From NCBI GenBank assembly GCA_045810105.1, contig JBJMWM010000026.1, positions 27,808 through 91,807 of the forward strand: a DNA stretch of 64,000 nucleotides, written 5' to 3'. Shown here piece by piece: positions 5,709-38,901 of the stretch. The position numbers and the translations under genes are program-made. Source of the stretch: Steroidobacteraceae bacterium (GTDB lineage: Bacteria > Pseudomonadota > Gammaproteobacteria > Steroidobacterales > Steroidobacteraceae). The notes under the pieces were generated by a model. It was given only the letters and a program-made list of their open reading frames with translations. It searched no databases and was not told the DNA's origin. How positions within the stretch are numbered: position 1 is the first letter of the stretch; each line of letters begins with the position of its first letter.

Positions 5709-7019
5709 TCAGAACGGATAATTGATCCCCGTGAACACGGCCGTACCATCGCTTCCATACCCGATATCGACATAACCCACCACGGATGGCCGCGCAATGC
5801 CGCGAAAACCGACGCCCGCCACCTTGTGCAGGCCATGGATAGGGAAAGTGGGGCCATTGTGAAACACGTTACCCACATCCACGAACGGTGTAACTTCGAT
5901 TTCGACGTGCGAAATGGCATCGAACTCGAACGCCCTGCGGCGCAACTCAACAGTAGCGGAAAACGAGTTGCGATCGTAGAACCGGCCCTCCCCGAAACCT
6001 CGCAGCGGCTGCTCGCCACCGACGACGGACTGCCCACCCCCCAGGCTGCTGAGCGCCCAGAACGGCAGCCGCTGCGTGCTCGGCAGATAACGCAGCGACA
6101 CGTGACTGGCGAGGAGCGTTTTCGGATTGATCGGCCAGAAGACACGCCCATCTATGCCCGCTTCGCTGTATAACGAATTGTTGAGCAAGCCACTGCGGCT
6201 GGCGACCCCCCCGTAGGCAACCCAGGTCATACCCTGTCGGGGCGCGGTGAAGTTGTCGCGGGTATCATAGATGACCGACAATCGGTTGAGTTGCTCGGTA
6301 CTCGTGCCGAGGCCGCGAACGTGCGGGAAGCGCTGCTCGATGGATGCGACCTTGTCCAACGTGCCGGGCTGGATGTCCACTGTCCGCAAACGCGCTGTGT
6401 ACAGCAACTGCCAGGCATGGGTGAAATTGTAGCCGACCTGGACCTGGAGCAATCCCTGTTTGTTGGTGAAGTTGGTCTCATCACGCTCCGGAGTGCCATT
6501 GCCGATTCCGAAGAAGCGCGGCGAGCCATTGACGTCATAGATGGCGCTACCCGTGAACGACCAGCGCCCCTCGCGCAGCCGTCCCAGCGTGTACTCAGCA
6601 TCGAACTCGCGCTCGACACGCTGCTTGAGTCCCGCCTCCAGGGACCACTGCTTGTCCTCCGAAGGATAATCGAAGATGCGGCCATGAAAGCCAACGCCGA
6701 AGTTGGGGTTATAAAGGATATCCGGGGCGATGATCCGCCGGATACGGTGCTCCTCGTCCGTCAACAGCCACACCGGCAGTATTCCCAGGGTGGTGCCGCT
6801 ATCGGGGTCCTGCGCGATTTCGGGCACCGGAATGAACGGCAGCGTGTTGTACCAGTGCCGCTCCGAAAGATTGGGGCTGGGAGCGGTGGATTTCAGGCCG
6901 CTGGCATCAGGCGCGGGGGTTTGCGCGCCTACATCCGGGGAATCCGCCCAGGAGGGGGTCGCGAACACCAGCGCGGCAGCACAGCCGCAGAACAGATTCA
7001 GACTTGCCGCGCGAAGCAC
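5709..7019 (-). CDS. Omp85/BamA-TamA family outer-membrane beta-barrel (no obvious POTRA domains)
   Basis: Signal peptide MLRAASLNLFCGCAAALVFATPSWA. Surface-antigen barrel pattern (LRGFGEGRFYDRNSFSATVELR). Terminal aromatic residues ...GINYPF. Confidence 0.7.
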   Translation of the reverse strand: MLRAASLNLFCGCAAALVFATPSWADSPDVGAQTPAPDASGLKSTAPSPNLSERHWYNTLPFIPVPEIAQDPDSGTTLGILPVWLLTDEEHRIRRIIAPDILYNPNFGVGFHGRIFDYPSEDKQWSLEAGLKQRVEREFDAEYTLGRLREGRWSFTGSAIYDVNGSPRFFGIGNGTPERDETNFTNKQGLLQVQVGYNFTHAWQLLYTARLRTVDIQPGTLDKVASIEQRFPHVRGLGTSTEQLNRLSVIYDTRDNFTAPRQGMTWVAYGGVASRSGLLNNSLYSEAGIDGRVFWPINPKTLLASHVSLRYLPSTQRLPFWALSSLGGGQSVVGGEQPLRGFGEGRFYDRNSFSATVELRRRAFEFDAISHVEIEVTPFVDVGNVFHNGPTFPIHGLHKVAGVGFRGIARPSVVGYVDIGYGSDGTAVFTGINYPF

Positions 7020-8071
7020 TGCAAAAGCCGGTCGAGGTCAACGGAAGTTACATGACCCATGGTCGAGATCCGAAACAAGCTCTGCGCCAGGTCCCCCTGT
7101 CCCGCATAGATCACAAAGCCTTGCGCCTTCAAGGCGTCATGTAGTTTTGTATAGCTCATGCCAGCTGGCAATTTATAAGATCGCAATACAACCGAGGACT
7201 GCTCGGGCGCGACGACGGGCTCGATCCCGAGCGTGGCCAGCCCGGTCCGAACCTGCTCAGCTAGTGCCGCATAGCGTTGGTAGCGAGCTGCGCGTCCGCC
7301 CTCATCTGCAAACTCGCGGAGCGCTTCGACGAGCGCGTAATAAGCCTGCACCGCTGGCGTGAAGGGCGTATTGCGTTGATCCTGCATGCGCGCCAGTCGG
7401 CCAAGATCGAGGTAATACGTACGGCTCGCCGCCTGCGGCAAGAGCGCACGCCGGACTACCACGAAGGAGGCGCCTGGCACCCCGTGCAGACATTTATTAG
7501 CGGTTGCAGCTACCGCACCCAGGCTGTCTTGCGCGAAATCGATGGGCTCCGCTCCGAAACTGCTCACCGCATCGACGAGTAGGCGCAAGCCTCGGGCCCG
7601 GCACAACTGCATCAAGGGCACAAGATCATTGAGCCGCCCGGTTGTGGTCTCGTGGTGAACGACGGCCACGTGGGTGAACTGCGCGTCCTGCTTCGCGCCA
7701 TCGAGTCGAGCCGCGATGGCATCGAGGTCCAAACCCTGCATCCAGGGAAAGATGACGCGCTCGTGCGCGATCCCATATTGCAAGCAGATCTGGGCTATCC
7801 GCTCGCCATAGACGCCATTCTCGAGGTTGAGCAGCCGGCCGCCGCTCGGAACCAGCGCAGCCGTCATGCTTTCCACCGCCGCAGTGCCGGAGCCGGTCAT
7901 GAGCACGGCAGTCCACAGGTTCGGATCCAGGTCGTACGTGGCGAGCAGCCGCTGGCGTGCCTCATCCTGTACAGCAAAGAATTCGCTTTCACGGTGACAC
8001 AGATCAGGCTGCAACAGGCTCTGGCGTACACGGCCACTGAGCGTGACAGGCCCGGGGTTGAGCAACAGCAT
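6998..8071 (-). CDS. 2-aminoethylphosphonate--pyruvate transaminase (class V aminotransferase, PhnW-like)
   Basis: N-terminus LLLNPGPVTLSGRVRQSL...LCHRESEF is typical of AEP transaminases. ATG 8071 shares one base with the ppd stop codon; TTG 8074 is an alternative start. Confidence 0.8.
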   Translation of the reverse strand: MLLLNPGPVTLSGRVRQSLLQPDLCHRESEFFAVQDEARQRLLATYDLDPNLWTAVLMTGSGTAAVESMTAALVPSGGRLLNLENGVYGERIAQICLQYGIAHERVIFPWMQGLDLDAIAARLDGAKQDAQFTHVAVVHHETTTGRLNDLVPLMQLCRARGLRLLVDAVSSFGAEPIDFAQDSLGAVAATANKCLHGVPGASFVVVRRALLPQAASRTYYLDLGRLARMQDQRNTPFTPAVQAYYALVEALREFADEGGRAARYQRYAALAEQVRTGLATLGIEPVVAPEQSSVVLRSYKLPAGMSYTKLHDALKAQGFVIYAGQGDLAQSLFRISTMGHVTSVDLDRLLQCFARQV

Positions 8072-9279
8072 CAAGGAACTCCGGCTAAAGAGCCGAAGTG
8101 TTGCATCAGACGTGTCTTTACGTCGACTGGAGTTACGGAAGGACGCGGCAGGCCGTCAGGTGTGCCCGCACGAGTCAGCAGGCGTGCAAACCTCGGCCCC
8201 CCGGTTGGTGGTGATTCCAGCCAGGCGCCGATTCGCGCTACATCGTCGGTTTCAAGCGAGGAAGCGTAGCCGCAGGCAGCTGCAATTTCTGCGAACGACA
8301 CGTGTGTCGAAACGGTCGCCTGACCGCCAGTCGAATCATGGACGCCGTTATCCAGCAGCAGGTGCTGAAGATTCGGTGGCCCATAAGCGCCCACCGTTGC
8401 GAATGCGCCCATGCGCATCAGAGCGGCTCCGTCGCCATCCAATGCAATCACACGCACGTCTGGCCGAGCCAGTGCGAGTCCCAGTGCCAATGGCACTACG
8501 CAACCCATCGATCCAACCATGTACAACTGGTTGGGCCGATCATCGATAGCGTAGAGCTCGCGACCGCAAAATCCCGTAGACGCAAGCACGGCCGTCGAGG
8601 CCACTGGCGTGCGCGCGATGACCTCCCGAAGCGCATCCTGCCGAGATGGGCGCGCACTATCGGGCAGCCTGAGAGGTTCCAGCACGACCCGTGCTGCCGG
8701 CGTGCTACCAGAGGGACTCGTCTGCGAACCAGAAGGCTTTCCGACCGCGCTGGCACCTGGTTTGAGGGCGTATGGCGCTACCGTGCCCTTCTGCATTACC
8801 AAGGCGTATGGGCGCCCTGTGTCGTCCATGTAGGCCGTGGCTCTGTCCAGCGCGGGACCGATGGCATCAATCTCGGCAGGAAACAGCTCCCACGGGATCT
8901 CCATGGTTTCGAGCATCTTGGGCGTGATCGGGCCCATGAGAGCGTGTTGGGGTTCATCAGGCACGCCGGGCTGGGCCCGCCAGGTGACGATCAGCAGTTG
9001 AGGCAGGCGGAAGGTCCAGGTAAGCGAAGTCAGCGGACTGACGGCATTACCCAGGCCGGAATTCTGCATCATCGCCACGCCACGCCGGCCGCCACCCGCC
9101 AACGCAACACCCGCAATCAGAGCGACCGCGTCTCCCTCATTCGCCATCGACACATACTTCAGCGACGGATCCTGCAGCACATAGTTGATGAAGGGCGTCA
9201 GATACGAGCATGGGACGCCGGCGTACCACTCGAAGCCCCGCTCACGCGCGGCTTCGACGAAATGCCGCGCTTCAATCAT
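8071..9279 (-). CDS. ppd: phosphonopyruvate decarboxylase (ThDP enzyme)
   Basis: The internal start [33 protein letters not shown] is the family N-terminus. ATG 9279 overlaps the pepM stop (ATGATTGA). A ThDP-binding GDGAALM motif is present. Confidence 0.85.
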
Positions 9280-11011
9280 GGGGCGCTGCGTCCGCCGCGC
9301 TGCCAAAGGGGGTTTGTGCGTGCGCGAAGTCCACCGCCTGGCGGAAATCCTCGAGATCGTTGACACCCCGCCAGTGACCATGGACATACAGCACTTCGAT
9401 CTGCGCTCCGTCCGCAATCAGCGCGTTCATCAACGCCGGCATGTCCAGCGTGTCAAAGTCAGGCCGCTCGCGCAGGCGCGCGAGCACCGCTTTCACCTTC
9501 AGCAGTCCCTCGCGGCTCACCTTGAGCAGGCCAATCCAACGGCCGTTGGCGGTCTCACCCGAATCGCTGCTTTGCGGCTGCTTGGCGCTGACCACCCGCT
9601 TCAACAACACGGGCGTGCCGAACAGCCCACGGTCATCCGCACGCGAGCTGTAGGCAAAGTCACGGACGGTGCGATCGCCCTCCGCGCTCGGCGAAGAGTC
9701 CACGACCACGGAGAAGTCCGCCTTACTCTCGACGAGAGCCCGCAACACATAGCTGCGGAACAACAGGTCGCCGTACGAAATCACCGTTTCAGATTCGAGC
9801 CCGTGCATGGCGCAGGCAAGCGACCCCAGCTCACCGGTCTCGGTGTAACGCTCGTTGACGACCAGTTTGATTCCCGCGGTGTCGATCGCATCGACCCGAT
9901 AGCCACCGACTACGGTAATGTCGTTGACATTCTCCTTCTTAAAGCCGTCCACGAGCCAGCGAAGCAGCGGCTTGCCTGCGATCGGCAACATGACTTTGGG
10001 CCGATCGGCCGTCATCGCATCCAGTCCACGGCCGCGGGTTGCGGCCAGCACCACTGCCGAGCGCGACGCTTCCGATGCGGACAGGTACAAGCGTTCGGCC
10101 GCGGAGTACTCATCGGCATCCTGTAATCGGAAGATCTCGTTGACCGAGGCCACGCGGTCTTCGACGTTCACGAGCGTTTCATTGGTGTGGATTTCCCTGG
10201 CCACGCTCTGCATTGCGGCGGTTGCCGCGCGCACCAGGTGATTTGCCCAGATCACCATGCTGATGCCGGCCTTGCGGAACACATCCGTAGGCGTGCTGTA
10301 GTATTTCGTCGGCACGATCACCAACGGCGCTCTGCCAGCCCACTCGCGCGCGAACGTCACGATCTCATCCGGCTTCGACAGCTTGCTGTGAATCAGGATG
10401 GCATCAGCGCCGGCGCGCCGGTACGCTTCGGCCCGCCGCAGAGCCTCGTCCATGCCCCAACCGGCAATTAACGCCTCGACGCGCGCGACGATGCAGAAGT
10501 TCGGATCGTTCTGCGTGTCCTTGCCAGCCGCAATTTTCCCCGCGAACTCTGCCATCTCTGCCAGGGGCTGGCGCTCACCATTCAGAAAGCTGTTGGTCTT
10601 GGGGAACTGCTTGTCTTCGATGCAGACACCGGCAATACCGCGCTGCTCGAGCTTGCGGACCAGGCGGCGCATGTTGTTGAAGTTCCCGTAGCCGGTATCA
10701 CCATCCAGCAGGATGGGCAGATCACTGGCATCGGCCATGAATTCCAACATGTCCACGACCTGGGTCCAGCTCGCTTCGTTGTTGTCGCGCACGCCGAACT
10801 GCGCCGAAATGGATAGCCCCGAGCCCCAGATTCCCTTGAAGCCCGCTTCGCGCACGATGCGCGCGGACAGGCCGTTGTGCGCCTCCATCAGGAACTCGAG
10901 CTGCTCGCTCAACAGCATCTGCCGTAATCGTTGGCTGCGTGTCCGCAGGACCCCCTCGTTGGCAGCTGAGTGGAGCTCGCGGGTGGCGGATGATCCCATT
11001 GAAGCATTCAT
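9272..11011 (-). CDS. pepM: phosphoenolpyruvate mutase fused to a C-terminal nucleotidyltransferase domain
   Basis: The PepM-diagnostic EDK-x5-NS motif is present as [10 protein letters not shown]. The C-terminal ~250 aa ([11 protein letters not shown]...[12 protein letters not shown]) is an NTP-transferase fold. The start shows an ATGA overlap with the upstream gene. Confidence 0.9.
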
Positions 11012-11775
11012 GGCTGCGATCCTGGCAACGGTGGAAGTTTGGGCAGCACCGTGCGTGCCGCCCGGGAAACATCATTCGGAAAATCGATCTCGATCCAGGG
11101 CAACCCGGTGACATCGGCAATGTCGATGATCTGGCTATGCTCGAGCAGCAAGTCGCGAACGGCCTCCTCATGTGGCATGTTGGCGCGGCCGCGCTCGACA
11201 TAGCCGGCGACGAGCGTCGCGAGCCGGCGTGCGCCCGCGGGGTCGAACCGGAAAAAACCGACCGACTCGCCAATGGTGTCATATTGCAAGCCGGGTGCGA
11301 CCTGTTTACGCAACTCAACCGGCACGCCATCGCGCACGCACACCTTGACCGGCTCATCACCAGGTTCGAATTCGCGGTCGATGAGGATGCGGTTGACGGG
11401 CTTCCGCCCGGCTACCAGCGCTGTCATGATTCCCTCGTGGTACAGCACATCAGCGTCCATGAGCAGCACATCGCCGCCGCGGGTCATGGCCTGCGCGACT
11501 GTGTGAACCGTGAGGACACTTCCGAGCTCGAAGCCCGGGTTCAACACAACCTCAGGCCGCGGCGTCCAGCGCAGGCGATCGAGCTCAGTCTCGACCAGCT
11601 CGTGCCGGAATCCCAAGGCCAGCACGACCTCCTCGACGCCGGCTTGCTTCAAAAGCAACAGGTGCCGCTCGAGCAGCGTCCGCCCGTCGAATTCCAACAG
11701 GCACTTGGGCAGTTGCTGATCATCCGACTGTTGCAGACGCATTCCACGGCCCGCGGCAAGAATGATGGCGCGCAT
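11008..11775 (-). CDS. LicC/PntC-like nucleotidyltransferase (candidate phosphonate cytidylyltransferase)
   Basis: [14 protein letters not shown] glycine-rich NTase motif. A strong AAGGAG Shine-Dalgarno lies upstream of ATG 11775. Confidence 0.8.
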
Positions 11776-11797
11776 TGAGCTCCTTATCGAAGTCGCA

Positions 11798-12784
11798 TTA
11801 TATGGCGAGGCGGCGACGCCAGCCTCGTTCGGACAGGTGCAGGTACAGCAATCCGGGTAGCCCCAGCAGAACCTCGCGCGCCCGCTTCGCCAGCGACAAG
11901 GCGAGCGCAGTCTCGGGCCGCAGTCCTACCAACGGCGCCAGAAGCAGATAACCACCCTCCTGCACGCCCAGGGATCCCGGGATGGCAAAGCCTGCCGCGC
12001 GAATCGCCTGGCCGAGGCTTTCCAACAGCAGCGCATCGCTCCAAGTTACGGGAAAGCGCAACAGCAGCAGGATCAAGTAGACTTCCGCAGTACCGATCAG
12101 CCAGCCGATGAGGCTCAGCAAGAAGCTGGCGGCAACCCGACCCGTGCGGCCGTAGGCATCCTGGACGGCCGAATCGATCGCATCCGCCTGGGTCATGATC
12201 TGCGACCAGTCCCGTTTACCGCCGATGCGTGCGATCGCGCGCATCAGCTTCCCAAACAGCCCGCGCCGCTGCATCAGGTAAAAGCCGGTCAGACAGAATG
12301 CCAGGACGCCGCTGGACAGCAGCAACGCCGTGCGCACCGAGTGTTCGGAGCTCTGGCTGGCGTGGGCACCCAGCAACGCCATGCCCAGCAGCGCAAAAAT
12401 AATCTGCGCAAAAGTCTGAAGGGTCGTACTGACAGTGACGCCAGCGGCAGCATCGCGCATCGACATACCGCGTTGCGCAAGATAACGCACCATCATCACG
12501 GGTCCACCGATGGGCCCCGCGGGCAGAAAACTGTTGGCAGACTCCCCTACCCAGCGCGCGAACAACGTATCACGCAGGGTGCTGCGCACTTTGGTCGTGT
12601 CGAACATCACCCTTATGGAGGCGGCGTCCAGGGCCAAAGGCACGAGGTGCAGCAGAGCGACCAGCGGCAGTCCCCATCCGGCAACGGCCAATGTGGCAAA
12701 CACTGCGGTGAAGCCCTGCGAGATCAGCACGCCGGCGAAGAGCAGCACGCCCGCCGAGAGCAGCCAGATCGCCGCCCGGGTCAT
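11798..12784 (-). CDS. UPF0104 / lysyl-PG-synthase-TM-like (flippase-like) integral membrane protein
   Basis: About 8 TM helices. The internal ATG 12784 forms an ATGA overlap with the stop of the oxygenase gene. The family also contains the hopanoid-associated HpnL. Confidence 0.7.
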   Translation of the reverse strand: MTRAAIWLLSAGVLLFAGVLISQGFTAVFATLAVAGWGLPLVALLHLVPLALDAASIRVMFDTTKVRSTLRDTLFARWVGESANSFLPAGPIGGPVMMVRYLAQRGMSMRDAAAGVTVSTTLQTFAQIIFALLGMALLGAHASQSSEHSVRTALLLSSGVLAFCLTGFYLMQRRGLFGKLMRAIARIGGKRDWSQIMTQADAIDSAVQDAYGRTGRVAASFLLSLIGWLIGTAEVYLILLLLRFPVTWSDALLLESLGQAIRAAGFAIPGSLGVQEGGYLLLAPLVGLRPETALALSLAKRAREVLLGLPGLLYLHLSERGWRRRLAI

Positions 12785-13491
12785 GGGGATCCCTTGCGGC
12801 CGCGGAAGACTTGCCGCAGGCCAAAGTAGGCGACGGCGTCCTTGACATTGGAGATCAGCCGCCACCAGGGGTGCATGCTCTGATCGGTTACATACTCGAA
12901 GGTCAGCGACACGCGTTTTTCGTTCTCACCCAGGGGCGTAATGCGATGGCGTAGTTTGTCACCATCGAAAAACACCAGGCCACCGGGTGGAATCTGCACT
13001 GAGCCGGGTACCACGGCCACGCCACTCTCACGCGTGTGTAACTCGTAGTCGAGGCGGCATGACGATTGGTCGAGCACACCGAGTAGCAGCGTGTAGCGGC
13101 GTCCCGCGTAGTAGGAAGTATCGTAGTGCCAACCGATGTGATCGCCCGGACGCGTGTAGAAATACAGGGCGTAGGCATGCGGATCGTCAGGAGGCGAGAG
13201 CTGCAGGCGTTCCCCGGCCAGCTGCTCCAAAACACTGATCAACACCGGCGATCGATACAACTCGCCTATGAACGGCGCCAGCTGGTCGATCGTGTGGCGG
13301 CTGACACTGCCACCCTGCTTGTGGCCCGGCAGGTAGTTGCGGTTCATTGCGGGCTCAACCGCGGCAACCGCGCGGACGAGTTGCGCCGTGACTTCGGGGG
13401 TGAGGAACTCGGGCAGATACAGGAATGCGCCCTGCCGCACAAACTCGCTGCGCAGGGAGTGCGTGTCGAGCTTGTCCACGCGCGCTTCCAT
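12781..13491 (-). CDS. 2-oxoglutarate/Fe(II)-dependent oxygenase
   Basis: HxD...H facial triad candidates (GWHYDTS and KLRHRITP) plus RVSLTF for 2OG binding. The ORF track extends to 14007, but that part overlaps the CDP-alcohol transferase gene. The ATG 13491 start gives MEARVDKL.... Confidence 0.65.
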   Translation of the reverse strand: MEARVDKLDTHSLRSEFVRQGAFLYLPEFLTPEVTAQLVRAVAAVEPAMNRNYLPGHKQGGSVSRHTIDQLAPFIGELYRSPVLISVLEQLAGERLQLSPPDDPHAYALYFYTRPGDHIGWHYDTSYYAGRRYTLLLGVLDQSSCRLDYELHTRESGVAVVPGSVQIPPGGLVFFDGDKLRHRITPLGENEKRVSLTFEYVTDQSMHPWWRLISNVKDAVAYFGLRQVFRGRKGSP

Positions 13492-13508
13492 CACTCGATG
13501 GACGCTGA

Positions 13509-14189
13509 TCAGGTCGCCCCCGAGGTCCGCCGGGCTTGGACAGGCTGCAGACGATTCAGCACGCGCCGGTAGTCGATCACCACCCAGACAGCGAACAAGG
13601 GAGCGCCTATGGAGGCCGCTATCAGGAACGGTGTCAGACCATTGAAGATCGTCACGAGCGGTAGAAGGTACAGCACGTCTTCGGTTTCGAACCCGGCCAG
13701 CGAGACCTGTTGGCTCGCAGCCTTGCCGGCCAGCCCCTCGATCCGCATGCGCAGGAAGAAGATCAACGCGACCGCGCTGCCGGCCACCAGGCCGAGCACG
13801 GCCGGCGGCATCTGCAGGACGGAGCCAACTCTCGCGGCCACGCCGACACCCATCGCCAGGAACAGCAGGATCGTAACCACGGCATCGCTCGCCAGGTCGT
13901 AGATGTGACCGATACGGCTCGTCTTGCCGCTGATTCGGGCCAGCTCGCCATCGGTATGATCCAGAAAATTTGACAGAACCAGCAGCAGGGCGCCGATGTT
14001 CGTCCATCCGTAGGTACCGGGCAGGAACGCAGCCGCAGCGGCGAGGCCAAAGGCGAGGCGCACGGTCGTCAGATGATTCGGGGTCGCCCGGCTGTCCTTC
14101 AGCGGTGTAACCAGGCGACGCGCCAGCCGTGCGTCCCAGGGCCGTTGCGTCACGGGGACAGAATGAGAAAGTAGCGGTGACTCAGGCAT
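13509..14189 (-). CDS. CDP-alcohol phosphatidyltransferase family protein
   Basis: The signature D-x2-DG-x2-AR-x8-G-x3-D-x3-D is seen as DHTDGELARISGKTSRIGHIYDLASD. The protein is multi-TM. Confidence 0.85.
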   Translation of the reverse strand: MPESPLLSHSVPVTQRPWDARLARRLVTPLKDSRATPNHLTTVRLAFGLAAAAAFLPGTYGWTNIGALLLVLSNFLDHTDGELARISGKTSRIGHIYDLASDAVVTILLFLAMGVGVAARVGSVLQMPPAVLGLVAGSAVALIFFLRMRIEGLAGKAASQQVSLAGFETEDVLYLLPLVTIFNGLTPFLIAASIGAPLFAVWVVIDYRRVLNRLQPVQARRTSGAT

Positions 14190-14269
14190 GATCGACCTAT
14201 TTTACGCTCGTTTTCTGGGGCATCCAACGGAAATGCCTCCCTCAAAAGGCGGACCTGGCGGGCGTGGTT

Positions 14270-15256
14270 TTAAGAGAGCGAACCTTGCTCGCGCAGCCAG
14301 GCAATGGCATCGCGCAACGCTTGCGCGGGTGGGCGCCAGTGGTATCCGAGCTCACGCATTGCCTTGTCACTCGAAAAGAACATGCGCTTACGCGACATGC
14401 GTACGGCTTCAAGTGTGATTCGCCCGGGTCGCCCGGTTACCCGCGCCACGGCTTCAGCTACATAGGCGATGGGGAACACGACTGCCGTTGGCAGGCGAAT
14501 ACGCGGCGGTTTCCTCCCCACGAGCTGCGCAATCTCAAACAGGATTTCCCGCAGCGTCATGTCCTCGCCGCCCAGGATGTACCGCTCGCCGGGCCGGCCG
14601 CGGTGGAAAGCAAGCAGATGGCCGGCGGCAACATCGTCCACATGTACGATGTTGAGTCCAGTATCGACGTAGGCAGGCATTCGCCCGGCAGCCGCGTCGA
14701 GGATCACCTGGCCCGTTGGCGTTGGTTTGACGTCACCCGGCCCTATTGGTGTCGATGGGTTCACGATCACCACGGGCAGTCCCGGCAGAACCGTTTCCCG
14801 CACCATCTGCTCGGCAAGAAATTTCGAGCGCTTGTAGTGACCGATCATGTCGGCTACGCCCACCGGCGTATCTTCGTTGCCGGGCGAGCCGTCAGCAGGA
14901 ATGCCAACGGTCGCGACACTGCTGGTGTAGACAACACGCCGCACGCCGGCTTGCCTGGCCGCTTCGAGAATATTGCGGGTCCCCTCGACATTCGTTTGGT
15001 ATAGCTGGCTCGGATCCGGCGCGCCCAGCCTGTAATCAGCCGCGACGTGAAACAGCGCCTCGCATCCTGACAGCGCGCGCTCCAGTGATGGTCTGTCAGC
15101 CAGGTTACCCTCGCTGACTTCCACGGGCAGAGCCTGAATGTTGCGCCGGTCCGACCCCGGGCGAGCAAGCGCCCTGACCTGCCATCCTTCCTGTACGAGC
15201 GCACGCGCAACGGCTGCCCCGACAAACCCAGTGGCGCCCGTCACTAAAGCTCTCAT
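14270..15256 (-). CDS. hpnA: hopanoid-associated NAD-dependent sugar epimerase/dehydratase family protein
   Basis: MRALVTGATGFVGAAV Rossmann motif. ATGA overlap with the hpnG stop. Sits in a hopanoid gene context. Confidence 0.8.
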   Translation of the reverse strand: MRALVTGATGFVGAAVARALVQEGWQVRALARPGSDRRNIQALPVEVSEGNLADRPSLERALSGCEALFHVAADYRLGAPDPSQLYQTNVEGTRNILEAARQAGVRRVVYTSSVATVGIPADGSPGNEDTPVGVADMIGHYKRSKFLAEQMVRETVLPGLPVVIVNPSTPIGPGDVKPTPTGQVILDAAAGRMPAYVDTGLNIVHVDDVAAGHLLAFHRGRPGERYILGGEDMTLREILFEIAQLVGRKPPRIRLPTAVVFPIAYVAEAVARVTGRPGRITLEAVRMSRKRMFFSSDKAMRELGYHWRPPAQALRDAIAWLREQGSLS

Positions 15257-16068
15257 GGCAAGCGGGTGTCGGCTGCCGTGGAAAATTCGTAGCGCGTCAA
15301 CGAGCCCGTGCGTGCAATTGCAGCCAGAGAGCGATTGGCCGCTCTGTAGCGACGGGCCAACCGGATCAGTGGAGCCAACTCATTGGGCGCGAGCGCCAGC
15401 GCGCCGATCAAACGCCAGACCTGCAGATGTCCCTCACTATCCGCGGCCGCCGTCACCGCACGCGGCAGGACATCTGCCGCGCAATCGACGATCACGCGCA
15501 CGGCGATGAACGGTAGTTGGTGTTTTGTGGCAACTTCGCCCACCGCCAGGCTTTCCATATCCACGGCCGCGGCACCGGTGGCCTGGAACAATCCAGCCTT
15601 GTCCGCGACCGTACCGATGGCGCGGGAGGTTGTCAGCAGCTTACCGCTACGGACGGGTGCAAGCGCCGCGACCGCACGGCTCAGCCGCTCCCGCCAGGCT
15701 GTGGCAGTGTTTAAGCGCTGTCCGTCCGACCCGATCACCTCTGTCGGCAGAAGAATGGCGCCGGCGCTCAGAGTTGGATCGAGCCCTCCAGCCATGCCCC
15801 AGCTCGCCAGCGCGCTGGCACCAGCGTCGACGAGGGCGCGGGACCCGGCGGCAGCGGCCGCGTTGCCCATCCCGGTTACGGCAACGAGCGTGCCGTCGGC
15901 AAGCGTCGCCAGCGCAGGCTTGTTCAAACGTACGGTTGGCCCCAGGTGCCGCGCTTCCGAGGCCAGCGCGCATACGATCCCAACTACGACGTTCAGTGCC
16001 AATGCGCGGCTCCGGGCCGCACCAGGTTGCGATAGGCGGACAGTGCCCAGAGCGGAAAGTACGCGCAA
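15253..16068 (-). CDS. hpnG: hopanoid-associated phosphorylase / adenosylhopane nucleosidase
   Basis: PNP/UDP-1 family features (VGIVCALASEA..., GMGNAAAA). The start is uncertain: ATG 16068 overlaps shc by 76 nt, whereas TTG 16002 overlaps it by only 10 nt. Confidence 0.7.
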   Translation of the reverse strand: MRVLSALGTVRLSQPGAARSRALALNVVVGIVCALASEARHLGPTVRLNKPALATLADGTLVAVTGMGNAAAAAGSRALVDAGASALASWGMAGGLDPTLSAGAILLPTEVIGSDGQRLNTATAWRERLSRAVAALAPVRSGKLLTTSRAIGTVADKAGLFQATGAAAVDMESLAVGEVATKHQLPFIAVRVIVDCAADVLPRAVTAAADSEGHLQVWRLIGALALAPNELAPLIRLARRYRAANRSLAAIARTGSLTRYEFSTAADTRLP

Positions 16069-18005
16069 TAGCCGTGATACTTCAGATAAAACACTCTCGG
16101 GAAACCCGGCGCGGTGAAATGCGGATCAGTCCACAGCCCATCCGCCTGTTGGGCACGCAGCAGGTATTCGATGCCGCAGCGCACGGCAACCGAGCTCGCC
16201 TGCCCGCTGGCCATCAGGGCCAGCAGTGCCCAAGCGGTTTGGTGCGGGGTGCTCTGCGTCTGCTCGTTCAGGTGCTGCTTGCAGTGGTATCCGTCGTTGC
16301 TCTCGCCCCAGCCACCGTCAGGATTCTGCCTGCCGACGAGCCAGGTCACGGCGCGGCGGACCGCCTCGTCATCCGGACCGATGCCAGCCAGCCCAAACGC
16401 GGACAACACCGACCACGTTCCGTAGATGTAGTTGGTACCCCAACGGCCGAACCACGGACCTTCAGCCATCTGCTCCTTGCGCAGAAAGTCAATCGCGCGC
16501 CGCAGCGGTTCCCGGTCCTGCGGCCGGGCGACCAGCGACATCGCCGCCACGACGCGCGCCGTCACATCACTCGTCGGCGGATCCAACAGCGCGCCGTGAT
16601 CCGCGAACGGAATCAGGTTGAGGTTGTAGTGTGTGTTGTCGACATCGAATGCCGCAAACCCCCCATTGCTGCTCTGCATTCCCGCGAGCCAGTCCAGCGC
16701 CCGCTCGATGCTGGCCGAATAGCGGGCGCGGTCGTTGGCGCGGTGCATCGCCCAGACGATGACGGCCGTATCGTCCAGGTCGGGGTAGTGGCCGTTGGCA
16801 AATTGGAACGGCCAGCCACCGCTCTTGAGATTCGGGCGGCTGACCTGCCAGTCGCCCGGCTCTTCCACCAGCTGTTTGCTCTTGAGCCAGCCGAGCGCGG
16901 CATCGGTCGCGACAGCCGCCGCTGTACCACCAGCTTCCTGAAGTGCAAGGCCCGCGAGCGCGGTGTCCCAGACTGGGGATACGCACGGCTGACAGTAGGC
17001 ACTGTTGTCGTGCACCACGAGCAATTTCTTCAGCGCCCGTTTGGCCGTGACGACCCGCGGGTCATCGCTGGGATAACCGAGCAATATCATCGCTTCCAGA
17101 GCGTTGACCATGGCGGGGAAGATTGCGCCCAGGCCATCTTCGCCGTTCAGGCGCGCCAGGAACCAGGCTTCGGCCCGGCGGGTCGCGGCCGCGCGCATGC
17201 GCTTCGGAATCAAAACATCCAACCGCCGGAAGACCCGATCGACCAGCAGGAATGCCGAGGCGAGCAGCCGCTCACGCCGGCTCGAGCGTTCCGGTCCCAA
17301 GCGAAAATACGTGTGCTCGCTCTCGGGAGGCGTCACGAACAGCTCGCGGACATCCACATTCCGCGGATTTTTGGCCCGTGGTTTGTAGGTGCACAGTATG
17401 AACAGCGGCACCATCACCGTGCGCGACCAGTACGACACCTTGTCGAGATGAAATGGAAACCAGCGCGGCATCAGCATGATTTCGACCGGCATGTACGGCA
17501 CGGCGCGCCACGGCACCTGGCCGAAGAGCGCGAGCGCGATCCGGGTGAACACGTTGGCCCGCGCAGCGCCGCCCCGCTCGAGAATGGCTTTGCGTGCCCG
17601 CACCATGTGCGGCGCGTCCGTACTGTCACCGGCAAGCTTCAAGGCGTAGTACGCCTTGACGGTGCAACTGATGTCGAGCTCGCCTCCGTAGTACAGCGGC
17701 CAACCACCGTGCTCGGCCTGGTGAGCGCGCAAATACACCGCGATCTTCGCTTCCAGCGACGAATCGATTTCGTCGAGGTAATGCATCATCATGATGTATT
17801 CGGCCGGAATGGTGCAGTCCGCTTCCAACTCGAACACCCAATAGCCGGACTCGCCCTGGCGCTCGAGCAGCCCATCGCGGGCGGCGTCGATGCCGCGGTT
17901 CAGTGACAGGTGCCCGGCGTGGCGCTCGAGCTTCTGCGCCAGCTGCTGCTGCCGGGTGTTATGTTTGTTGGTGGCGGCCTCTACGGCGCGGGAATTACGA
18001 CTCAA
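15993..18005 (-). CDS. shc: squalene-hopene cyclase
   Basis: 670 aa. Catalytic DxDDTA is seen as DLDDTAV, with multiple QW repeats. The TTG start forms a TTGA overlap with the sqs stop. Confidence 0.95.
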   Translation of the reverse strand: MSRNSRAVEAATNKHNTRQQQLAQKLERHAGHLSLNRGIDAARDGLLERQGESGYWVFELEADCTIPAEYIMMMHYLDEIDSSLEAKIAVYLRAHQAEHGGWPLYYGGELDISCTVKAYYALKLAGDSTDAPHMVRARKAILERGGAARANVFTRIALALFGQVPWRAVPYMPVEIMLMPRWFPFHLDKVSYWSRTVMVPLFILCTYKPRAKNPRNVDVRELFVTPPESEHTYFRLGPERSSRRERLLASAFLLVDRVFRRLDVLIPKRMRAAATRRAEAWFLARLNGEDGLGAIFPAMVNALEAMILLGYPSDDPRVVTAKRALKKLLVVHDNSAYCQPCVSPVWDTALAGLALQEAGGTAAAVATDAALGWLKSKQLVEEPGDWQVSRPNLKSGGWPFQFANGHYPDLDDTAVIVWAMHRANDRARYSASIERALDWLAGMQSSNGGFAAFDVDNTHYNLNLIPFADHGALLDPPTSDVTARVVAAMSLVARPQDREPLRRAIDFLRKEQMAEGPWFGRWGTNYIYGTWSVLSAFGLAGIGPDDEAVRRAVTWLVGRQNPDGGWGESNDGYHCKQHLNEQTQSTPHQTAWALLALMASGQASSVAVRCGIEYLLRAQQADGLWTDPHFTAPGFPRVFYLKYHGYCAYFPLWALSAYRNLVRPGAAHWH

Positions 18006-19174
18006 AGCGCGGATCTCCCTTCGGAGCGGCGTGCTCCCCGTTCGTGCGGTACCGACCGCACGGCATGGCTGTACTCAGGCGCGGGAGCGGCCGCGGTTAG
18101 TGCCGGCCTGGATGCGCGGCGCACGGTTCCGGCAGGCGCGAGCGGTACCCCGCGGGCGGCAATGTCGAACAGGCGCTTGAGCATCCAGTTGTTACGTACG
18201 GTCATGTTGGTTGAGATTCGGGTCATGGCCACGGCCGACCGCGGGATCTTCACCTGGCGGCCGCTGGTGAAGCCGGGCGTCGCGGCAATCTTGCGCAGGG
18301 TGAGGATTGCCATGCCGATGGCCCAGAGGCAGAAACGGCGGATGCCCGCTTCCGTACCCGGGATGAGCAATGTGAAGGACAGCGCATTGCGCAGGTGCGC
18401 GTGGGCCACCCCGACCAACTCGCGCATGGCCGCATCGAAGCGTCCATCGGCGCGTGCCGGCGTGAGCTGGCCCAGATCGATGCCATGGCGGGTGAAGACT
18501 TCCTGCGGCAGCCAGCAAGCTCCCCGGCCGCGGTCCTCCCACACATCCTTCAGGATGTTGGTCATCTGCAGCCCCTGGGCGAATGACACATCGAGCTCGT
18601 GCAGGCCGGCGCGTTGCTGGGCGATCTGCGGTGAGTATCCGCAGAACAGCTCCGTGAGCATCTGGCCCACGACCCCGGCGACGTAGTAACAGTAGTCGTC
18701 CATGTCCGTCTGGCGCGGCACTCCCCGCAGGCTGGCAGTCTGCTGGAACTGGTGCATGCCGCCGCACATCACCTCGACGCAGCGTTGAATCGCGAACTGT
18801 TGTTGTGCCTCCAGCCGGTTGGTCACGCGGACCACCCGCTCCATGTTGGCCACCAGGTCGGCTTCGGCCTTCAGAGTCTGATTGGAGAGCTGCGGACCTA
18901 AGTCCTGGGCCAGGGCAGCGGCCGGTTCTTTGCCATACAGCATTGCCACGAAGCGCTGCAGGAAATGCAGGCTGGCGGCCGGCGTCAGCGCGGGTTCGTC
19001 TTCGATGGTATCGGCAATCCGACACAGCAGGTAGGCGTTGGTGACGGAAGTGCGCAATGCCGGGGGCAGCTGCGGGATGGTCAACGCGAAGGTGCGCGAC
19101 ACGTCCGGCAGGATATGCTCCTGGTAAGCCTCATCCGACAGGCTGGAATCCGTCTGTACAGCGTCTGGCGACAT
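18002..19174 (-). CDS. sqs: squalene synthase (farnesyl-diphosphate farnesyltransferase, single-enzyme type)
   Basis: 390 aa. VSRTFALTIPQLPPALR...YLLCRIADTIEDE is the SQS_PSY family signature. Confidence 0.85.
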   Translation of the reverse strand: MSPDAVQTDSSLSDEAYQEHILPDVSRTFALTIPQLPPALRTSVTNAYLLCRIADTIEDEPALTPAASLHFLQRFVAMLYGKEPAAALAQDLGPQLSNQTLKAEADLVANMERVVRVTNRLEAQQQFAIQRCVEVMCGGMHQFQQTASLRGVPRQTDMDDYCYYVAGVVGQMLTELFCGYSPQIAQQRAGLHELDVSFAQGLQMTNILKDVWEDRGRGACWLPQEVFTRHGIDLGQLTPARADGRFDAAMRELVGVAHAHLRNALSFTLLIPGTEAGIRRFCLWAIGMAILTLRKIAATPGFTSGRQVKIPRSAVAMTRISTNMTVRNNWMLKRLFDIAARGVPLAPAGTVRRASRPALTAAAPAPEYSHAVRSVPHERGARRSEGRSAL

Positions 19175-19445
19175 CGCTCGAACAAAACCTCCGACTTCGA
19201 CTGACCCACGCGAGACGCGCGGATGCGGCTCGAAATGCCCCAGCGCATACGCACAGCGCGTATGCGCACCCTCAGGGGCGCGACTTTACCATGCAATCAA
19301 TCAGTTAAGGTCTAGCCACTTAGAGGCAAGGGGCGTACCAACGTTCGCGGCCGGGCCACCCTCTTCCGGCGCGAAGCGCCGCTACTCTTCGCGGGTCGCC
19401 CCTGGGCGATCCCGCCAAGGCGTGGGGCGCAGCCCCTGAAAAGGG

Positions 19446-20390
19446 TCAATAATGCCGCGAAAGCAGCCAGTCAGCCAAAGAGCGCAATAGGTCGGCACGT
19501 GAGCCCAGCGGGGCGAGCGCATCGATTGCCTGGGCATGCAGCAGCCGCACCCGCTCCTGGGATGCCTCGATGCCGATGACTGAAGGGTGGGTCGGCTTCG
19601 AGCGCTCGCTATCCGCGCCAGTCGCCTTACCCAAGGTGGACACGTCGCCGAGCACGTCCAACAAGTCATCCTGGATCTGAAACGCCAGCCCTATGGGACT
19701 CGCAAAACCGGCGAGCGCCTCCTGCAACCGAGAATCGAGGGACGGCGCACAGGCGGCGGCCATCATCAGGCTGACGCGGATGAGCGCGCCGGTCTTACGC
19801 GAATGCATCTCTTCCACTTGTGTCAGGTCCAGTTGCTTGCCCTGGACCGCCAGGTCTATGGCCTGACCACCCGCCATGCCGAACGAGCCGCTCGCTTCCG
19901 CCAGCAACTCCACGAGCCGCAGGCGAATGGCCGGCGATGCCGGCAGGGCCGGATCCCGTGTCAACACGTGGAACGCCAGCGTCTGCAGGGCATCGCCTAC
20001 CAGAACCGCCGTCGCCTCATCGAAAGCTTTGTGACAGGTTGGACGCCCGCGACGAAGGTCGTCATTGTCCATTGCCGGTAAGTCATCGTGCACGAGTGAG
20101 TAGACATGTATGAGTTCGATAGCGCAGGCGGCGCCTTCGACCTCCTCCTCGGAACGGCCTATCGCACGAGCTGCAGCGAACAGCAACGCCGGCCGGATAC
20201 GCTTGCCACCGCCAAGTACGGTGTAGCGCATCGCCTCATGTAGACGGGCCGGCACGACCTCCGGGCCCGGAAGCCGCGCGGCTAATGCCGACTCCATGCG
20301 CGCCTGCCACGATTCCAGCTGGGCGCGAAACGCTTCGCGCCCGGCCGAATCGCTCACAGGGGCCTGTCGAGCCCCGACAGCGGCGCTCAC
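19446..20390 (-). CDS. ispA: farnesyl-diphosphate synthase (polyprenyl synthetase)
   Basis: Both Asp-rich motifs are present (LVHDDLPAMDNDDLRRG and FQIQDDLLD). GTG 20390 has a GGAAGG Shine-Dalgarno 6 nt upstream. The longer ORF to 20471 would overlap hpnH. Confidence 0.85.
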   Translation of the reverse strand: MSAAVGARQAPVSDSAGREAFRAQLESWQARMESALAARLPGPEVVPARLHEAMRYTVLGGGKRIRPALLFAAARAIGRSEEEVEGAACAIELIHVYSLVHDDLPAMDNDDLRRGRPTCHKAFDEATAVLVGDALQTLAFHVLTRDPALPASPAIRLRLVELLAEASGSFGMAGGQAIDLAVQGKQLDLTQVEEMHSRKTGALIRVSLMMAAACAPSLDSRLQEALAGFASPIGLAFQIQDDLLDVLGDVSTLGKATGADSERSKPTHPSVIGIEASQERVRLLHAQAIDALAPLGSRADLLRSLADWLLSRHY

Positions 20391-20424
20391 GCCCACCCTT
20401 CCCGGAGGCCAGTATTTGCCAGGA

Positions 20425-21609
20425 TCATTGCTGTCTGGAGGGATGCCCGCCTTCGGGCTCACGGTTGGCACGCTTCACATCGGCAACGGCAACGGTGGCC
20501 ACCGTGCCACCGCGCGCAGGCCGGTCGCCATCGCTATAAAGAATGGGCAGATCGGCAGCCATCTGACCCGACACCCGGGCTCCCAGGACCGCCGTCTTGA
20601 GCAATTTCAGCGGATGACTGAATGCGTCATCCACGGCGGTACCCTCGAATCCACAGTGAGCCATGCAGTTGTCGCAGGCAGGGTTGCGGCCCACACCATA
20701 CTTCTCCCAATCGGTGTCTTCCATGAGGGACTTGAAAGTCGGGGCATAGCCTTCGTCGGTCAAGAGGTAACAGGGCCGCTGCCAACCGAACAAGTTGTAG
20801 GTAGGCGTGCTCCATGGGGTGCACTGGTAAGCCTGGTTGCCGGCCAAAAAGTCCAGAAACAGCGCCGAGTGGTTGAAGGACCAGCGGGTGCGCGCTCTAC
20901 CTTTCGGCGAGCTTGCACTGCGGCCGCGCTTGAAGATTTCCCTGAACAGCCGCTTGCTCGCGCTACGGCCGAGGAATACATCCTGGCGCGGCGCATGGTG
21001 ATAGCTGTAGCCGGGCGAGACCATGATTCCTTCAATGCCGAGCGCCATCGCTTCATCAAAGAAAGCGGCCACCTCGTCAGGGTTCTCACCGCTGAAGAGT
21101 GTGCAGTTGATGGTCACGCGGAAGCCCTTGCTGCGCGCCAGACGGATCGCAGCCACCGCCTTGTCGAACACGCCTTCCTGGCAGACGGACTCGTCGTGGC
21201 GCTCGCGGCTGCCATCGAGGTGAATCGAGAACGTGAGGTATGGCGAAGGGGTGTATTCGTCGATGTGCTTGGGCAACAGGATTGCGTTGGTGCACAGGTA
21301 GACGAATTTCTTGCGCGCGACGATGCCCGCGACGATCTGCGGCATCTCCTTGTGGATCAGCGGCTCGCCGCCTGGGATGGACACCATGGGCGTGTCACAT
21401 TCATCCACTGCACGCAGTGCGTCTTCGACGCTCACCCGCTTCTGCAGGGTTTCCTTGGGGTAGTCAATCTTGCCGCACCCGGCACAGGCGAGATTGCACT
21501 GAAATAACGGCTCGAGCATCAATACCAGCGGATAACGCTTGATGCCGCGCAGCTTCTTGCCGGCGATGTATCGACCGACCTTGTATGCCTGTAAAAGCGG
21601 AACGCCCAA
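20425..21609 (-). CDS. hpnH: adenosyl-hopene transferase, radical SAM
   Basis: [20 protein letters not shown] contains the CxxxCxxC cluster in the HpnH-typical N-terminal context. TTG start with a GGAGAG Shine-Dalgarno. Confidence 0.9.
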
Positions 21610-21621
21610 CTTGTAACTCTC

Positions 21622-22188
21622 CTATTGCTGAGCAGAAAGCACGGCGCGGTGATCCCGCCAGATGCGCTCCCACTCCATCACAAACCACGGTGTGAACCGC
21701 CCTGCCTCGCTGCCGGCGAGCTGCGCCTGCAGGTCCTCGGGACTGATCCAACGCCACGCGAGAATCTCGCGTGGATCGATCCTGACAGGATCTGAGCAGC
21801 GGCCGACGAACACGGAGCACAGCTCCTGCTCGGCGCCCGCCGCATCGAACTGCGCCTGGTACTGAAACTTGAACAGGAAGTGCAGCGGACAGCGCAATCC
21901 CAGCTCTTCATACAGCCGCCGGTGGATCGCAGTCTCCATGCTCTCCGCGCGCCGCGGATGGCTGCAGCAGCTGTTGGACCAGTACAGCGGCCACAGCCGC
22001 TTTGCGGCTGCACGCTGTTGCAGCAGCAACTCGCCCGCAGCGTTGAAGATGAGCAACGAGAACGCGCGATGCAGAACGCCGCGGCCCTGATGACACTGCG
22101 CCTTGTCGAGGTGCCCGACTTCCCGGTCGGCTTCGTCCACCAGGATCAGCGACTCGGAATCGGCCGCGCTGCCCCGAACTTCATCCAT
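21622..22188 (-). CDS. idi: isopentenyl-diphosphate delta-isomerase, type 1 (Nudix)
   Basis: [11 protein letters not shown]...[25 protein letters not shown]...RRLYEELG matches type 1 IDI, including the catalytic Cys and Glu regions. Start is ATG 22188; TTG 22194 is an alternative. Confidence 0.9.
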
Positions 22189-30046: not shown

Positions 30047-30202
30047 CCGGGGCGCTGCGGGTCGGGCTCGGGCGCGATGCCTTAGCGAGCGGGAGACGAT
30101 AGTGAGGGGGTTAAACGTTTTCTTCAGTAGTGGACCGTACCCGTCACGGGAGCGGACCTGCTGTTGCTTGTTTGCAACATTCTACGGTTGGGGGGATTTC
30201 GA

Positions 30203-33193: not shown

Positions 33194-33195
33194 AC

Positions 33196-34743: not shown

Positions 34744-34757
34744 CCAGTTACGGGTCA

Positions 34758-34791
34758 CGACCCGTACGACCCGTACGACCCGTACGACCCG
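34758..34791. repeat. 9-bp tandem repeat CGACCCGTA x 3.8
   Basis: Read directly from the sequence. It lies between the halogenase stop (34743) and the sapC ATG (34800). It is in frame with TTG 34740, giving (RPV)n. Confidence 0.85.
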
Positions 34792-34799
34792 AGTGCACC

Positions 34800-35540: not shown

Positions 35541-35569
35541 CGTCAGACGAACGCTCCGCGAGCCTCTGC

Positions 35570-36586: not shown

Positions 36587-36605
36587 GCTAAGGACGAGCC
36601 ACGTC

Positions 36606-38819: not shown

Positions 38820-38854
38820 CAGTCCGTCGGACTTGCGCATGCGCCGCCGGCGCA

Positions 38855-38882: not shown

Positions 38883-38901
38883 GACCTACGAAGTGATGTC
38901 C

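Follow-up and report, generated by a model that had tools for sequence, protein, structure and literature searches.

The 64,000-nucleotide stretch analysed here, called the window below, comes from a Steroidobacteraceae metagenome-assembled genome (MAG; GCA_045810105.1, contig JBJMWM010000026.1, positions 27,808 to 91,807). At 5709-14189 on its minus strand lie eight genes for the synthesis of 2-aminoethylphosphonate (AEP), its cytidylyl activation and its transfer by an enzyme of the CDP-alcohol family. They make up the 3' part of a long hopanoid operon and constitute its head-group half. A preliminary description of the same DNA had taken them for a self-contained operon, which does not hold: because the genes from idi to hpnA lie directly upstream on the same strand, with a gap of only 80 nt between hpnA and the transferase gene, the array is a unit of 15 genes on one strand, spanning ~16.5 kb (5709-22187) in the order idi-hpnH-fps-sqs-shc-hpnG-hpnA-cdpOH-2OG-hpnL-ntp2-pepM::pntC-ppd-aept-omp85. 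We tentatively propose, with a little less than even confidence, that the acceptor of the phosphonate is an extended hopanoid (bacteriohopanepolyol) and the product an AEP- or hydroxy-AEP-capped hopanoid, not a glycerophosphonolipid. Gene calls were scored with Pfam and NCBIfam profiles against curated cut-offs. From its 5' end, the array reads:

21625-22187, minus strand: idi, isopentenyl-diphosphate isomerase, probable first gene of the array (tblastn, 69% identity to L014:1822-2568)
20425-21609, minus strand: hpnH, adenosyl-hopene transferase, a radical SAM protein (TIGR03470, 529.7 bits, cut-off 225)
19446-20471, minus strand: fps, farnesyl-diphosphate synthase (NF045485, 351.5 bits, cut-off 275)
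18002-19174, minus strand: sqs, squalene synthase-like protein (TIGR01559 at 109 bits, with HpnD and HpnC, are its best matches, all below their cut-offs)
15993-18005, minus strand: shc, squalene-hopene cyclase (TIGR01507, 820 bits, cut-off 431)
15253-16068, minus strand: hpnG, hopanoid-associated phosphorylase/nucleosidase (TIGR03468, 188.3 bits, cut-off 187.1, marginal)
14270-15256, minus strand: hpnA, hopanoid-associated short-chain dehydrogenase/reductase 'sugar epimerase' (TIGR03466, 503 bits, cut-off 368)
13509-14189, minus strand: cdpOH, CDP-alcohol-family phosphotransferase, the proposed CMP-AEP:lipid-alcohol phosphonotransferase (PF01066 CDP-OH_P_transf, 46.9 bits, cut-off 22)
12781-13491, minus strand: Fe(II)/2-oxoglutarate (2OG) oxygenase of HalD/BesD fold (PF23169, 46.6 bits, cut-off 26)
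11798-12784, minus strand: hpnL, HpnL-family, flippase-like membrane protein (PF03706 LPG_synthase_TM, formerly UPF0104; TIGR03476, 311.7 bits, cut-off 195.65)
11008-11775, minus strand: ntp2, stand-alone PntC/LicC-type cytidylyltransferase (PF12804, NTP_transf_3)
9272-11011, minus strand: pepM::pntC, phosphoenolpyruvate (PEP) mutase fused to a second PntC/LicC-type nucleotidyltransferase (TIGR02320, 399.6 bits, cut-off 319.55; C-terminal PF12804, NTP_transf_3)
8071-9279, minus strand: ppd, phosphonopyruvate decarboxylase (TIGR03297, 437 bits, cut-off 312.5)
6998-8071, minus strand: aept, 2-aminoethylphosphonate aminotransferase of the biosynthetic AepZ type (TIGR03301, PhnW-AepZ, 391.2 bits, cut-off 360.8)
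5709-7019, minus strand: omp85, Omp85-family outer-membrane barrel (PF01103, 58.6 bits, cut-off 24)

All eight co-directional open reading frames (ORFs) of the head-group half were found at 5709-14189 as first described, and each of the eight matched its assigned family in Pfam or NCBIfam, with scores far above chance. PepM, Ppd, the AEP transaminase and the PF03706 membrane protein all exceed curated NCBIfam cut-offs. Start and stop codons overlap at five of the seven junctions (2OG/hpnL, ntp2/pepM, pepM/ppd, ppd/aept and aept/omp85), in keeping with the preliminary description, and the two others are gaps of 17 and 22 nt. A scan for promoter-like sites (1 observed, 3.5 expected) and terminator-like sites (16 observed, 12.1 expected) does not settle where the operon is subdivided; it places a weak hairpin within the 80-nt hpnA-cdpOH gap. 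No Rfam family matched anywhere in the window at gathering thresholds.

The upstream half is a hopanoid cluster, with shc, hpnH and hpnG each above the curated cut-off, hpnG marginally. The idi homologue at L014:1822-2568 reaches 171.6 bits on NF002995 (cut-off 127). The start codon of fps is uncertain, the ATG at 20297 being the alternative. After TIGR03466, hpnA matches SdmB best, a reductase of bacterial sterol C-4 demethylation (249 bits), and hpnA directly adjoins the phosphonate module both in the window and in the MAG locus L090. Searches for hpnN, hpnB and hpnI/J/K found none within the 64-kb window.

PepM, Ppd and the transaminase form the established AEP route. The 579-aa fusion protein is a true PepM by its TIGR02320 score, and the models of its paralogues remain below cut-off (phosphonopyruvate hydrolase, 250.6 vs 374.4 bits; methylisocitrate lyase, 152.6 vs 354.4 bits). 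Its translation contains the EDKx5NS motif, as the preliminary description had quoted, which serves as a criterion for PEP mutase (PMC6697681). The fusion is 77-78% identical to Burkholderia homologues, and one third of Ppm (PEP mutase) enzymes carry a nucleotidyltransferase fusion (Rice et al. 2019, PMC6697681). The ppd gene starts with the ATG at 9279, so that its first 8 nt are shared with the end of pepM. The TIGR02320, TIGR03297 and TIGR03301 scores show, as far as family membership goes, the predicted conversion of PEP to AEP by PepM, Ppd and the transaminase.

Activation to CMP-AEP, also part of the preliminary description, gained support from ntp2. Its best PDB match is 6PD1, the characterised AEP cytidylyltransferase Tde1415 PntC, to which it aligns over its full length (residues 2-247, E = 3e-7). 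Of the two amine-contacting residues of Tde-PntC that bear on a preference for AEP over phosphocholine, Glu104 falls opposite Asp107 of ntp2 in this alignment, and the region around Glu196 aligns poorly. The C-terminal domain of the PepM fusion has LicC (1JYK, E = 2e-10) as its best PDB match. Homology to a characterised enzyme thus suggests that the phosphonate would be activated with CMP. The arrangement resembles PntC/LicC tailoring pathways (PMC6697681) in its Ppm::PF12804 fusion, in the second PntC nearby and in CMP-AEP as the activated donor, here a proposed one. Those pathways use glycan acceptors and LicD-type transferases, whereas the downstream enzyme in the window belongs to the CDP-alcohol phosphotransferase family.

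The oxygenase probably acts on the head group. The 408-aa ORF listed for it is over-extended, and its real start is the ATG at 13491. Its H122-Y-D124 aligns to the H-W-G of BesD, and H122, D124 and H182 are invariant in 32 orthologues. A halogenase was considered and rejected: the carboxylate of the HxD...H triad is kept and invariant, and is not Gly or Ala. Because an invariant Asp stands where BesD has Gly, the protein is, judged from its residues, a BesD-fold hydroxylase. Pandoraea orthologues of 12781-13491 carry the NCBI label 'HalD/BesD family halogenase', which is probably wrong, these proteins most likely being hydroxylases as well. In L090 (4895-5908, minus strand; GCA_029936035.1) a PhyH-family protein occupies the place of the BesD-fold oxygenase, and its sole NCBIfam match is the phosphonate hydroxylase PhnY* (131 bits, cut-off 500). 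The swap looks like a non-orthologous replacement. As one oxygenase family has been replaced by another that matches PhnY*, it supports hydroxylation of the head group. We count this swap, together with the soluble donors of the nearest solved transferases described next, in favour of a phosphonate-capped hopanoid.

The transferase may alternatively start at the GTG at 14153. Its motif DHTDGELARISGKTSRIGHIYDLASD, also quoted in the preliminary description, matches the Dx2DGx2ARx8Gx3Dx3D signature, and D77, D80, A84, R85, G94 and D98 are invariant across 30 family members, D102 nearly so. When a profile of the family was compared with solved structures, the archaeal enzymes AF2299 and IPCT-DIPPS came first, the eukaryotic CHPT1/CEPT1 next and PIPS after them. 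AF2299, IPCT-DIPPS and CHPT1/CEPT1 use soluble CDP-alcohol donors and share the signature motif, which bears out the earlier proposal of transfer by a CDP-alcohol-family enzyme. The cluster resembles IPCT-DIPPS further in that a cytidylyltransferase is paired with the transferase and sometimes fused to it, as in P0153, where the partner is of the ntp2 type. The enzyme differs from IPCT-DIPPS, AF2299 and CHPT1/CEPT1 in scoring far below the equivalog cut-offs (51.8 vs 180 and 34 vs 580 bits), and its donor would be a CMP-phosphonate with a P-C bond. Identity as an archaetidylinositol-phosphate or phosphatidylinositol-phosphate synthase or as pgsA was rejected (NF040950, 51.8 vs 180 bits; NF045883, 33.9 vs 170 bits). 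The JGI label 'archaetidylinositol phosphate synthase' given to close homologues is likewise not to be adopted, as the scores are far under the cut-offs. A CDP-activated ribosylhopane as donor was set aside because both cytidylyltransferases are of the soluble LicC/PntC type.

These same matches bear on a reaction of reverse polarity, in which the 2OG enzyme would make 1-hydroxy-AEP and its hydroxyl would accept a phosphatidyl or other lipid-phosphoryl group from a CDP-lipid, as serine or inositol phosphate does with PssA, PIPS and AIPS. The best NCBIfam matches of the transferase are indeed archaetidylinositol- and phosphatidylinositol-phosphate synthases, which use CDP-lipid donors, all of them far below cut-off, and the hydroxylase is invariably part of the module. 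However, such a reaction would leave two conserved soluble PntC/LicC-type cytidylyltransferases without a role, one of which aligns full-length with a proven AEP cytidylyltransferase. The profile search places AF2299, DIPPS and CHPT1 above PIPS, and the fusion P0153 has its counterpart in IPCT-DIPPS, which uses the soluble head group in CDP-activated form. We consider reverse polarity very improbable.

A non-lipid acceptor is scarcely more plausible. In that case a soluble polyol or a glycan precursor would receive the phosphonate, giving a solute like di-myo-inositol phosphate or a surface phosphonoglycan. This would agree with AF2299 and DIPPS as the closest solved homologues, the product of DIPPS being soluble, and with the many PepM::PntC clusters that decorate glycans (PMC6697681). 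Against it, the array contains no glycosyltransferase, LicD-type transferase or polysaccharide export gene, and the transferase is consistently accompanied by a flippase-like membrane protein and an outer-membrane barrel, and in fusions by a lipid exporter of the resistance-nodulation-division (RND) type. The family of the transferase and its membrane partners point to transfer to a lipid alcohol.

The membrane protein had been described as UPF0104 flippase-like. Its PF03706 membership stands, and it also matches TIGR00374 'flippase-like' (53 bits, cut-off 43.2); what had been missed is its membership of HpnL (TIGR03476). The hpnL start overlaps the oxygenase stop (ATGA), and at 1.5-9 kb upstream the same strand carries shc, hpnH, hpnG and hpnA, so that the gene stands in a hopanoid locus, as expected of an HpnL. 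A PDB sequence search with the protein gave nothing useful. The main text of 10.1101/2025.07.29.667474 gives the function of HpnL as unknown and makes no mention of phosphonates. The other TIGR03476 branch adjoins hpnI/hpnJ/hpnK, for example in Paraburkholderia graminis and Methylobacterium bullatum, and the two branches share ~27-35% identity. Our module is thus like the HpnI/HpnJ/HpnK and HpnL system for bacteriohopanetetrol glucosamine and cyclitol ether, in that a TIGR03476 protein sits beside an enzyme for the polar group of the side chain inside hopanoid clusters. It is unlike that system in using a CDP-alcohol-family transferase with a proposed CMP-phosphonate donor in place of a glycosyltransferase; HpnL has no assigned function in either setting (10.1101/2025.07.29.667474).

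Flipping by HpnL is suggested by its partnership with a membrane enzyme and by natural fusions. Transferase::HpnL fusions form at least 24 clusters. A parallel is MprF, in which a lysyl-phosphatidylglycerol synthase is joined to a PF03706 flippase: here too a PF03706 domain partners a head-group enzyme, and in relatives the two are fused. The catalytic partner is unrelated to that of MprF, however, with no aminoacyl-tRNA-dependent domain, and the MprF model scores 16 bits (cut-off 600). Fusions of other kinds were also seen. The transferase is fused to HpnN in four diverged clusters at 90% identity, one of which (P0290) reaches 960 bits on the HpnN model TIGR03480 (cut-off 752). In some Pandoraea annotations transferase and oxygenase are called as a single protein of ~473 aa, which may be an annotation variant. 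An aminotransferase::transferase fusion (P0326) was examined as HpnO-like and is not specifically so.

The last gene, omp85, also scores 117.6 bits on NF047779, under the cut-off of 200, and a PDB sequence search with its product found no match. Homologues occur in the locus of most gammaproteobacterial relatives, several of them without AEP genes, and are absent from Burkholderiaceae loci. The gene is an accessory of Steroidobacteraceae-type loci.

Together these assignments suggest a pathway. PepM, Ppd and the transaminase would produce AEP, which the BesD-fold hydroxylase probably converts to hydroxy-AEP, and the PntC-type cytidylyltransferases would then form the CMP-phosphonate. At the cytoplasmic face, the CDP-alcohol-family membrane enzyme would move the phosphonyl group to a hydroxyl of a membrane lipid, here a bacteriohopanepolyol presumably made by the upstream hopanoid genes. 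The HpnL-family protein may flip or escort the product to the outer leaflet, by the logic of synthase and flippase in MprF, and HpnN, encoded elsewhere, could deliver it to the outer membrane with the Omp85-like protein. For bacteriohopanetetrol (BHT) as the acceptor, the computed [M+H]+ values are 654.4857 for BHT-AEP and 670.4806 for BHT-hydroxyAEP.

The head-group half is a member of a known, catalogued phosphonolipid family whose product is uncharacterised. The preliminary description had recognised a predicted, hardly characterised cluster type, in agreement with PMC8942020, and had missed its name: 'Burkholderiales_CDP-OH' (Li & Horsman 2022, PMC8942020), the 'Group 1 phosphonolipids' of Yu et al. 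2013. It covers 318 of 882 Ppm neighbourhoods and is the commonest PepM neighbourhood in RefSeq (PMC8942020). Its core consists of Ppm::PntC, Ppd, AEP transaminase (AEPT), a 2OG oxygenase, a second PntC and two 'phospholipid biosynthesis' genes, and its predicted product is a 1-hydroxy-AEP lipid, no such lipid having been characterised (PMC8942020). All seven core genes are present in the window (CDP-OH transferase, 2OG, PF03706, PntC, Ppm::PntC, Ppd, AEPT), their order matching that in Burkholderia cenocepacia and Cupriavidus sp. P-10, and the proteins are 60-86% identical to those of B. cenocepacia. Unlike the Group 1 loci, the core in the window directly extends a hopanoid operon and has an Omp85 gene behind it, and it belongs to a Steroidobacteraceae MAG, not to Burkholderiales. 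The name 'phosphonolipid' is itself a prediction, as the product of Group 1 was never characterised, and our literature search found no later characterisation. A preprint on 'flavophos' from Burkholderia was considered and concerns a different cluster. The same cluster has been reported in a lichen Nostoc, with its membrane gene labelled hpnL and no hopanoid link drawn (PMC5987646). Apart from a possible mention in Yu et al. 2013, the literature we found describes neither the position of the cluster inside a hopanoid operon nor its broader link to hopanoids.

Species-representative genomes were scanned with the motif DH[TA]DGE[LF]AR; at least 555 stretches encode a relative, and 80 loci were kept. 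The scan was driven by a 9-sequence alignment, the broad 30-sequence alignment being too diverse. The four-gene set cdpOH-2OG-hpnL-ntp2 is almost invariant in these loci and is followed by AEP genes in most. The module lies in or beside hopanoid clusters of Alpha-, Beta- and Gammaproteobacteria, in differing gene orders. On pBRH01 of Mycetohabitans rhizoxinica, the core is followed by dxs, hpnN, hpnM, ispH, hpnH, hpnA and hpnB, with shc just beyond. In Roseomonas marmotae, fps/hpnN on one side and ispH-hpnH-hpnG-shc-hpnE-D-C-B-A on the other enclose ntp2, aepX, aepY, hpnL, AEPT and the transferase gene, with no oxygenase annotated within the locus; a survey of Acetobacteraceae makes a one-sentence remark on a possible 'terpene-phosphonate' (PMC8776678). 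The MAG loci L090-L092 read hpnH, ispH, hpnA, polyprenyl synthase, ntp2, PhyH-type oxygenase, PepM::PntC, Ppd, AEPT, transferase::HpnN, HpnL-like, HpnM and MlaA.

Co-occurrence agrees with this linkage. In PLSDB, shc is found on 13 of 14 replicons with a close transferase homologue, and on only 50 of 72,556 records overall. In a published supplement, the presence of shc in Gammaproteobacteria correlates with Ppd (r = 0.385) and PepM (r = 0.334), and the guide to families near shc counts 1409 CDP-alcohol phosphatidyltransferases beside 1398 hpnG and 1333 hpnN; the paper comments on neither the correlations nor the transferase count (10.1101/2025.07.29.667474).

A hopanoid acceptor is favoured, therefore, because the module adjoins idi, hpnH, fps, sqs, shc, hpnG and hpnA without a break and in the same direction; because its membrane protein belongs to TIGR03476, whose other branch adjoins hpnI/hpnJ/hpnK; because the module joins hopanoid clusters in several arrangements (Steroidobacteraceae-type, Mycetohabitans, Roseomonas and L090-L092); because natural fusions join the transferase to HpnN, the hopanoid exporter; and because of the PLSDB and published co-occurrence. 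The preliminary description had held that the acceptor could not be read from the DNA. This is not entirely so, as gene context points to a hopanoid.

The principal alternative keeps the same chemistry and replaces the acceptor by diacylglycerol or another glycerolipid, as in the classical Group 1 phosphonolipid, giving a phosphonate analogue of phosphatidylethanolamine. HpnL would then be a generic flippase, and the hopanoid genes would be neighbours because remodelling of the envelope is co-regulated, with no product in common. The prediction published for the cluster family takes this form (PMC8942020, PMC5987646), and CHPT1/CEPT1, which transfer a CDP-alcohol head group to diacylglycerol, are among the nearest solved relatives. 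Several observations that weigh against a hopanoid acceptor fit it as well. Most related loci lack hopanoid genes nearby: only 10 of the 62 species-level loci with enough upstream flank have them within 10 kb (nine are of the Steroidobacteraceae type, collinear like the window, and the tenth, L024, is divergent and without AEP genes), and none was found within 18 kb in B. cenocepacia or Cupriavidus sp. P-10. Transferase::HpnL fusions recur in contexts without hopanoid genes. The three that we examined contain neither hopanoid nor AEP genes and hold either a sulfotransferase, an ABC-2 protein and PqiA/MlaD or nothing lipid-related. For this reason the transferase-HpnL pair is a general unit, MprF-like, that adds a head group and flips a lipid, and is not hopanoid-specific.

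Further points count against a phosphonate-capped hopanoid. The acceptor is read from gene context only, the co-occurrence counts are dominated by a few related lineages, and our literature search found no report of a phosphorus-containing hopanoid. In 17 of 69 loci the four-gene module, often with omp85, has no PepM, Ppd or AEPT gene within 8-10 kb, which leaves room for head groups besides AEP; in such loci either the AEP genes lie elsewhere in the genome or another head group is used, for example phosphoethanolamine. Against the diacylglycerol alternative, no such lipid has been found in Burkholderia, where the cluster is very common (PMC8942020). This alternative leaves unexplained the recurrent transferase::HpnN fusion, the insertion of AEP genes amid the hopanoid genes of Roseomonas and L090, and an HpnL-family partner whose other branch accompanies HpnI/J/K. 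We regard a glycerolipid acceptor as a serious possibility, though a rather doubtful one. Extended to the whole family, the proposal would be that the commonest PepM neighbourhood makes a phosphonate-capped hopanoid, an AEP or hydroxy-AEP ester of bacteriohopanepolyol, with HpnL as the flippase partner of polar-head-group enzymes; this we put forward still more cautiously than the assignment for the window itself.

The comparison also turned up loci of separate interest. The module without nearby AEP genes was recorded in L006, L024, L029, L038, L046, L053, L054, L056, L058, L059, L063, L070-L072, L075-L077 and L079, and such loci include several cultured Paraburkholderia species. In the metagenome contigs L095 (10001-12972) and L096 (10001-12894), a Sulfotransfer_3 gene and an ABC-2 permease gene come after the transferase::HpnL fusions, genes for lipid transport (PqiA/MlaD) are close by, and L095 alone has an adenosine 5'-phosphosulfate (APS) kinase gene, which hints at an unrelated, possibly sulfated lipid from the same transferase-flippase pair. 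L093 (8957-12073, plus strand; also a metagenome contig) has an HpnL-family gene (315 bits) followed by a fusion of a class-III aminotransferase to the CDP-OH transferase; the genes upstream of these encode an AMP-binding enzyme, a carrier protein and an acyltransferase of the lipid A type. It is another uncharacterised lipid cluster built on the transferase-HpnL pair.

A Rieske oxygenase gene lies directly upstream of the transferase in 26 of the 80 loci (for example L059:8808-10025, plus strand) or at the edge of the adjoining hopanoid cluster; it is found 5' of idi-hpnH in L008 and L020 and after omp85 in L024, and the window has no copy. Its best NCBIfam match is the sterol 4-methyl oxidase SdmA (149 bits, cut-off 600), and in the PDB it has generic Rieske monooxygenases as neighbours, DdmC and KshA among them. 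We treat it as a lead and not as evidence.

The remainder of the window holds carbohydrate-utilisation and transport genes with no evident tie to the phosphonate and hopanoid array. At 30164-40463 a TonB-dependent receptor gene lies between two genes of the 'tryptophan halogenase' family (33196-34743 and 38934-40463), followed by genes for a sugar kinase and xylose-isomerase-like TIM-barrel (AP_endonuc_2) proteins, and a LacI-type regulator gene is found downstream at 43636-46122. This region looks like a carbohydrate-utilisation locus unrelated to the phosphonate array.

Two fields have described the same genes without connecting them: work on phosphonates as a PepM neighbourhood with a predicted glycerophosphonolipid, and work on hopanoids as HpnL, conserved near shc and without a known function, where the CDP-alcohol transferase family was left unlabelled. 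The standard work-up of bacteriohopanepolyols, by acetylation or periodate cleavage, would probably hide a phosphono-hopanoid. If the proposed phosphono-hopanoid is real, it would explain why the predicted lipid has never been seen, give HpnL a role and introduce a new class of lipids, hopanoids that contain phosphorus and should resist cleavage by phospholipases and phosphatases. Such a lipid would matter for how robust the outer membrane is in Burkholderia, soil Steroidobacteraceae and symbionts like Mycetohabitans, and for the interpretation of hopanoid biomarkers.

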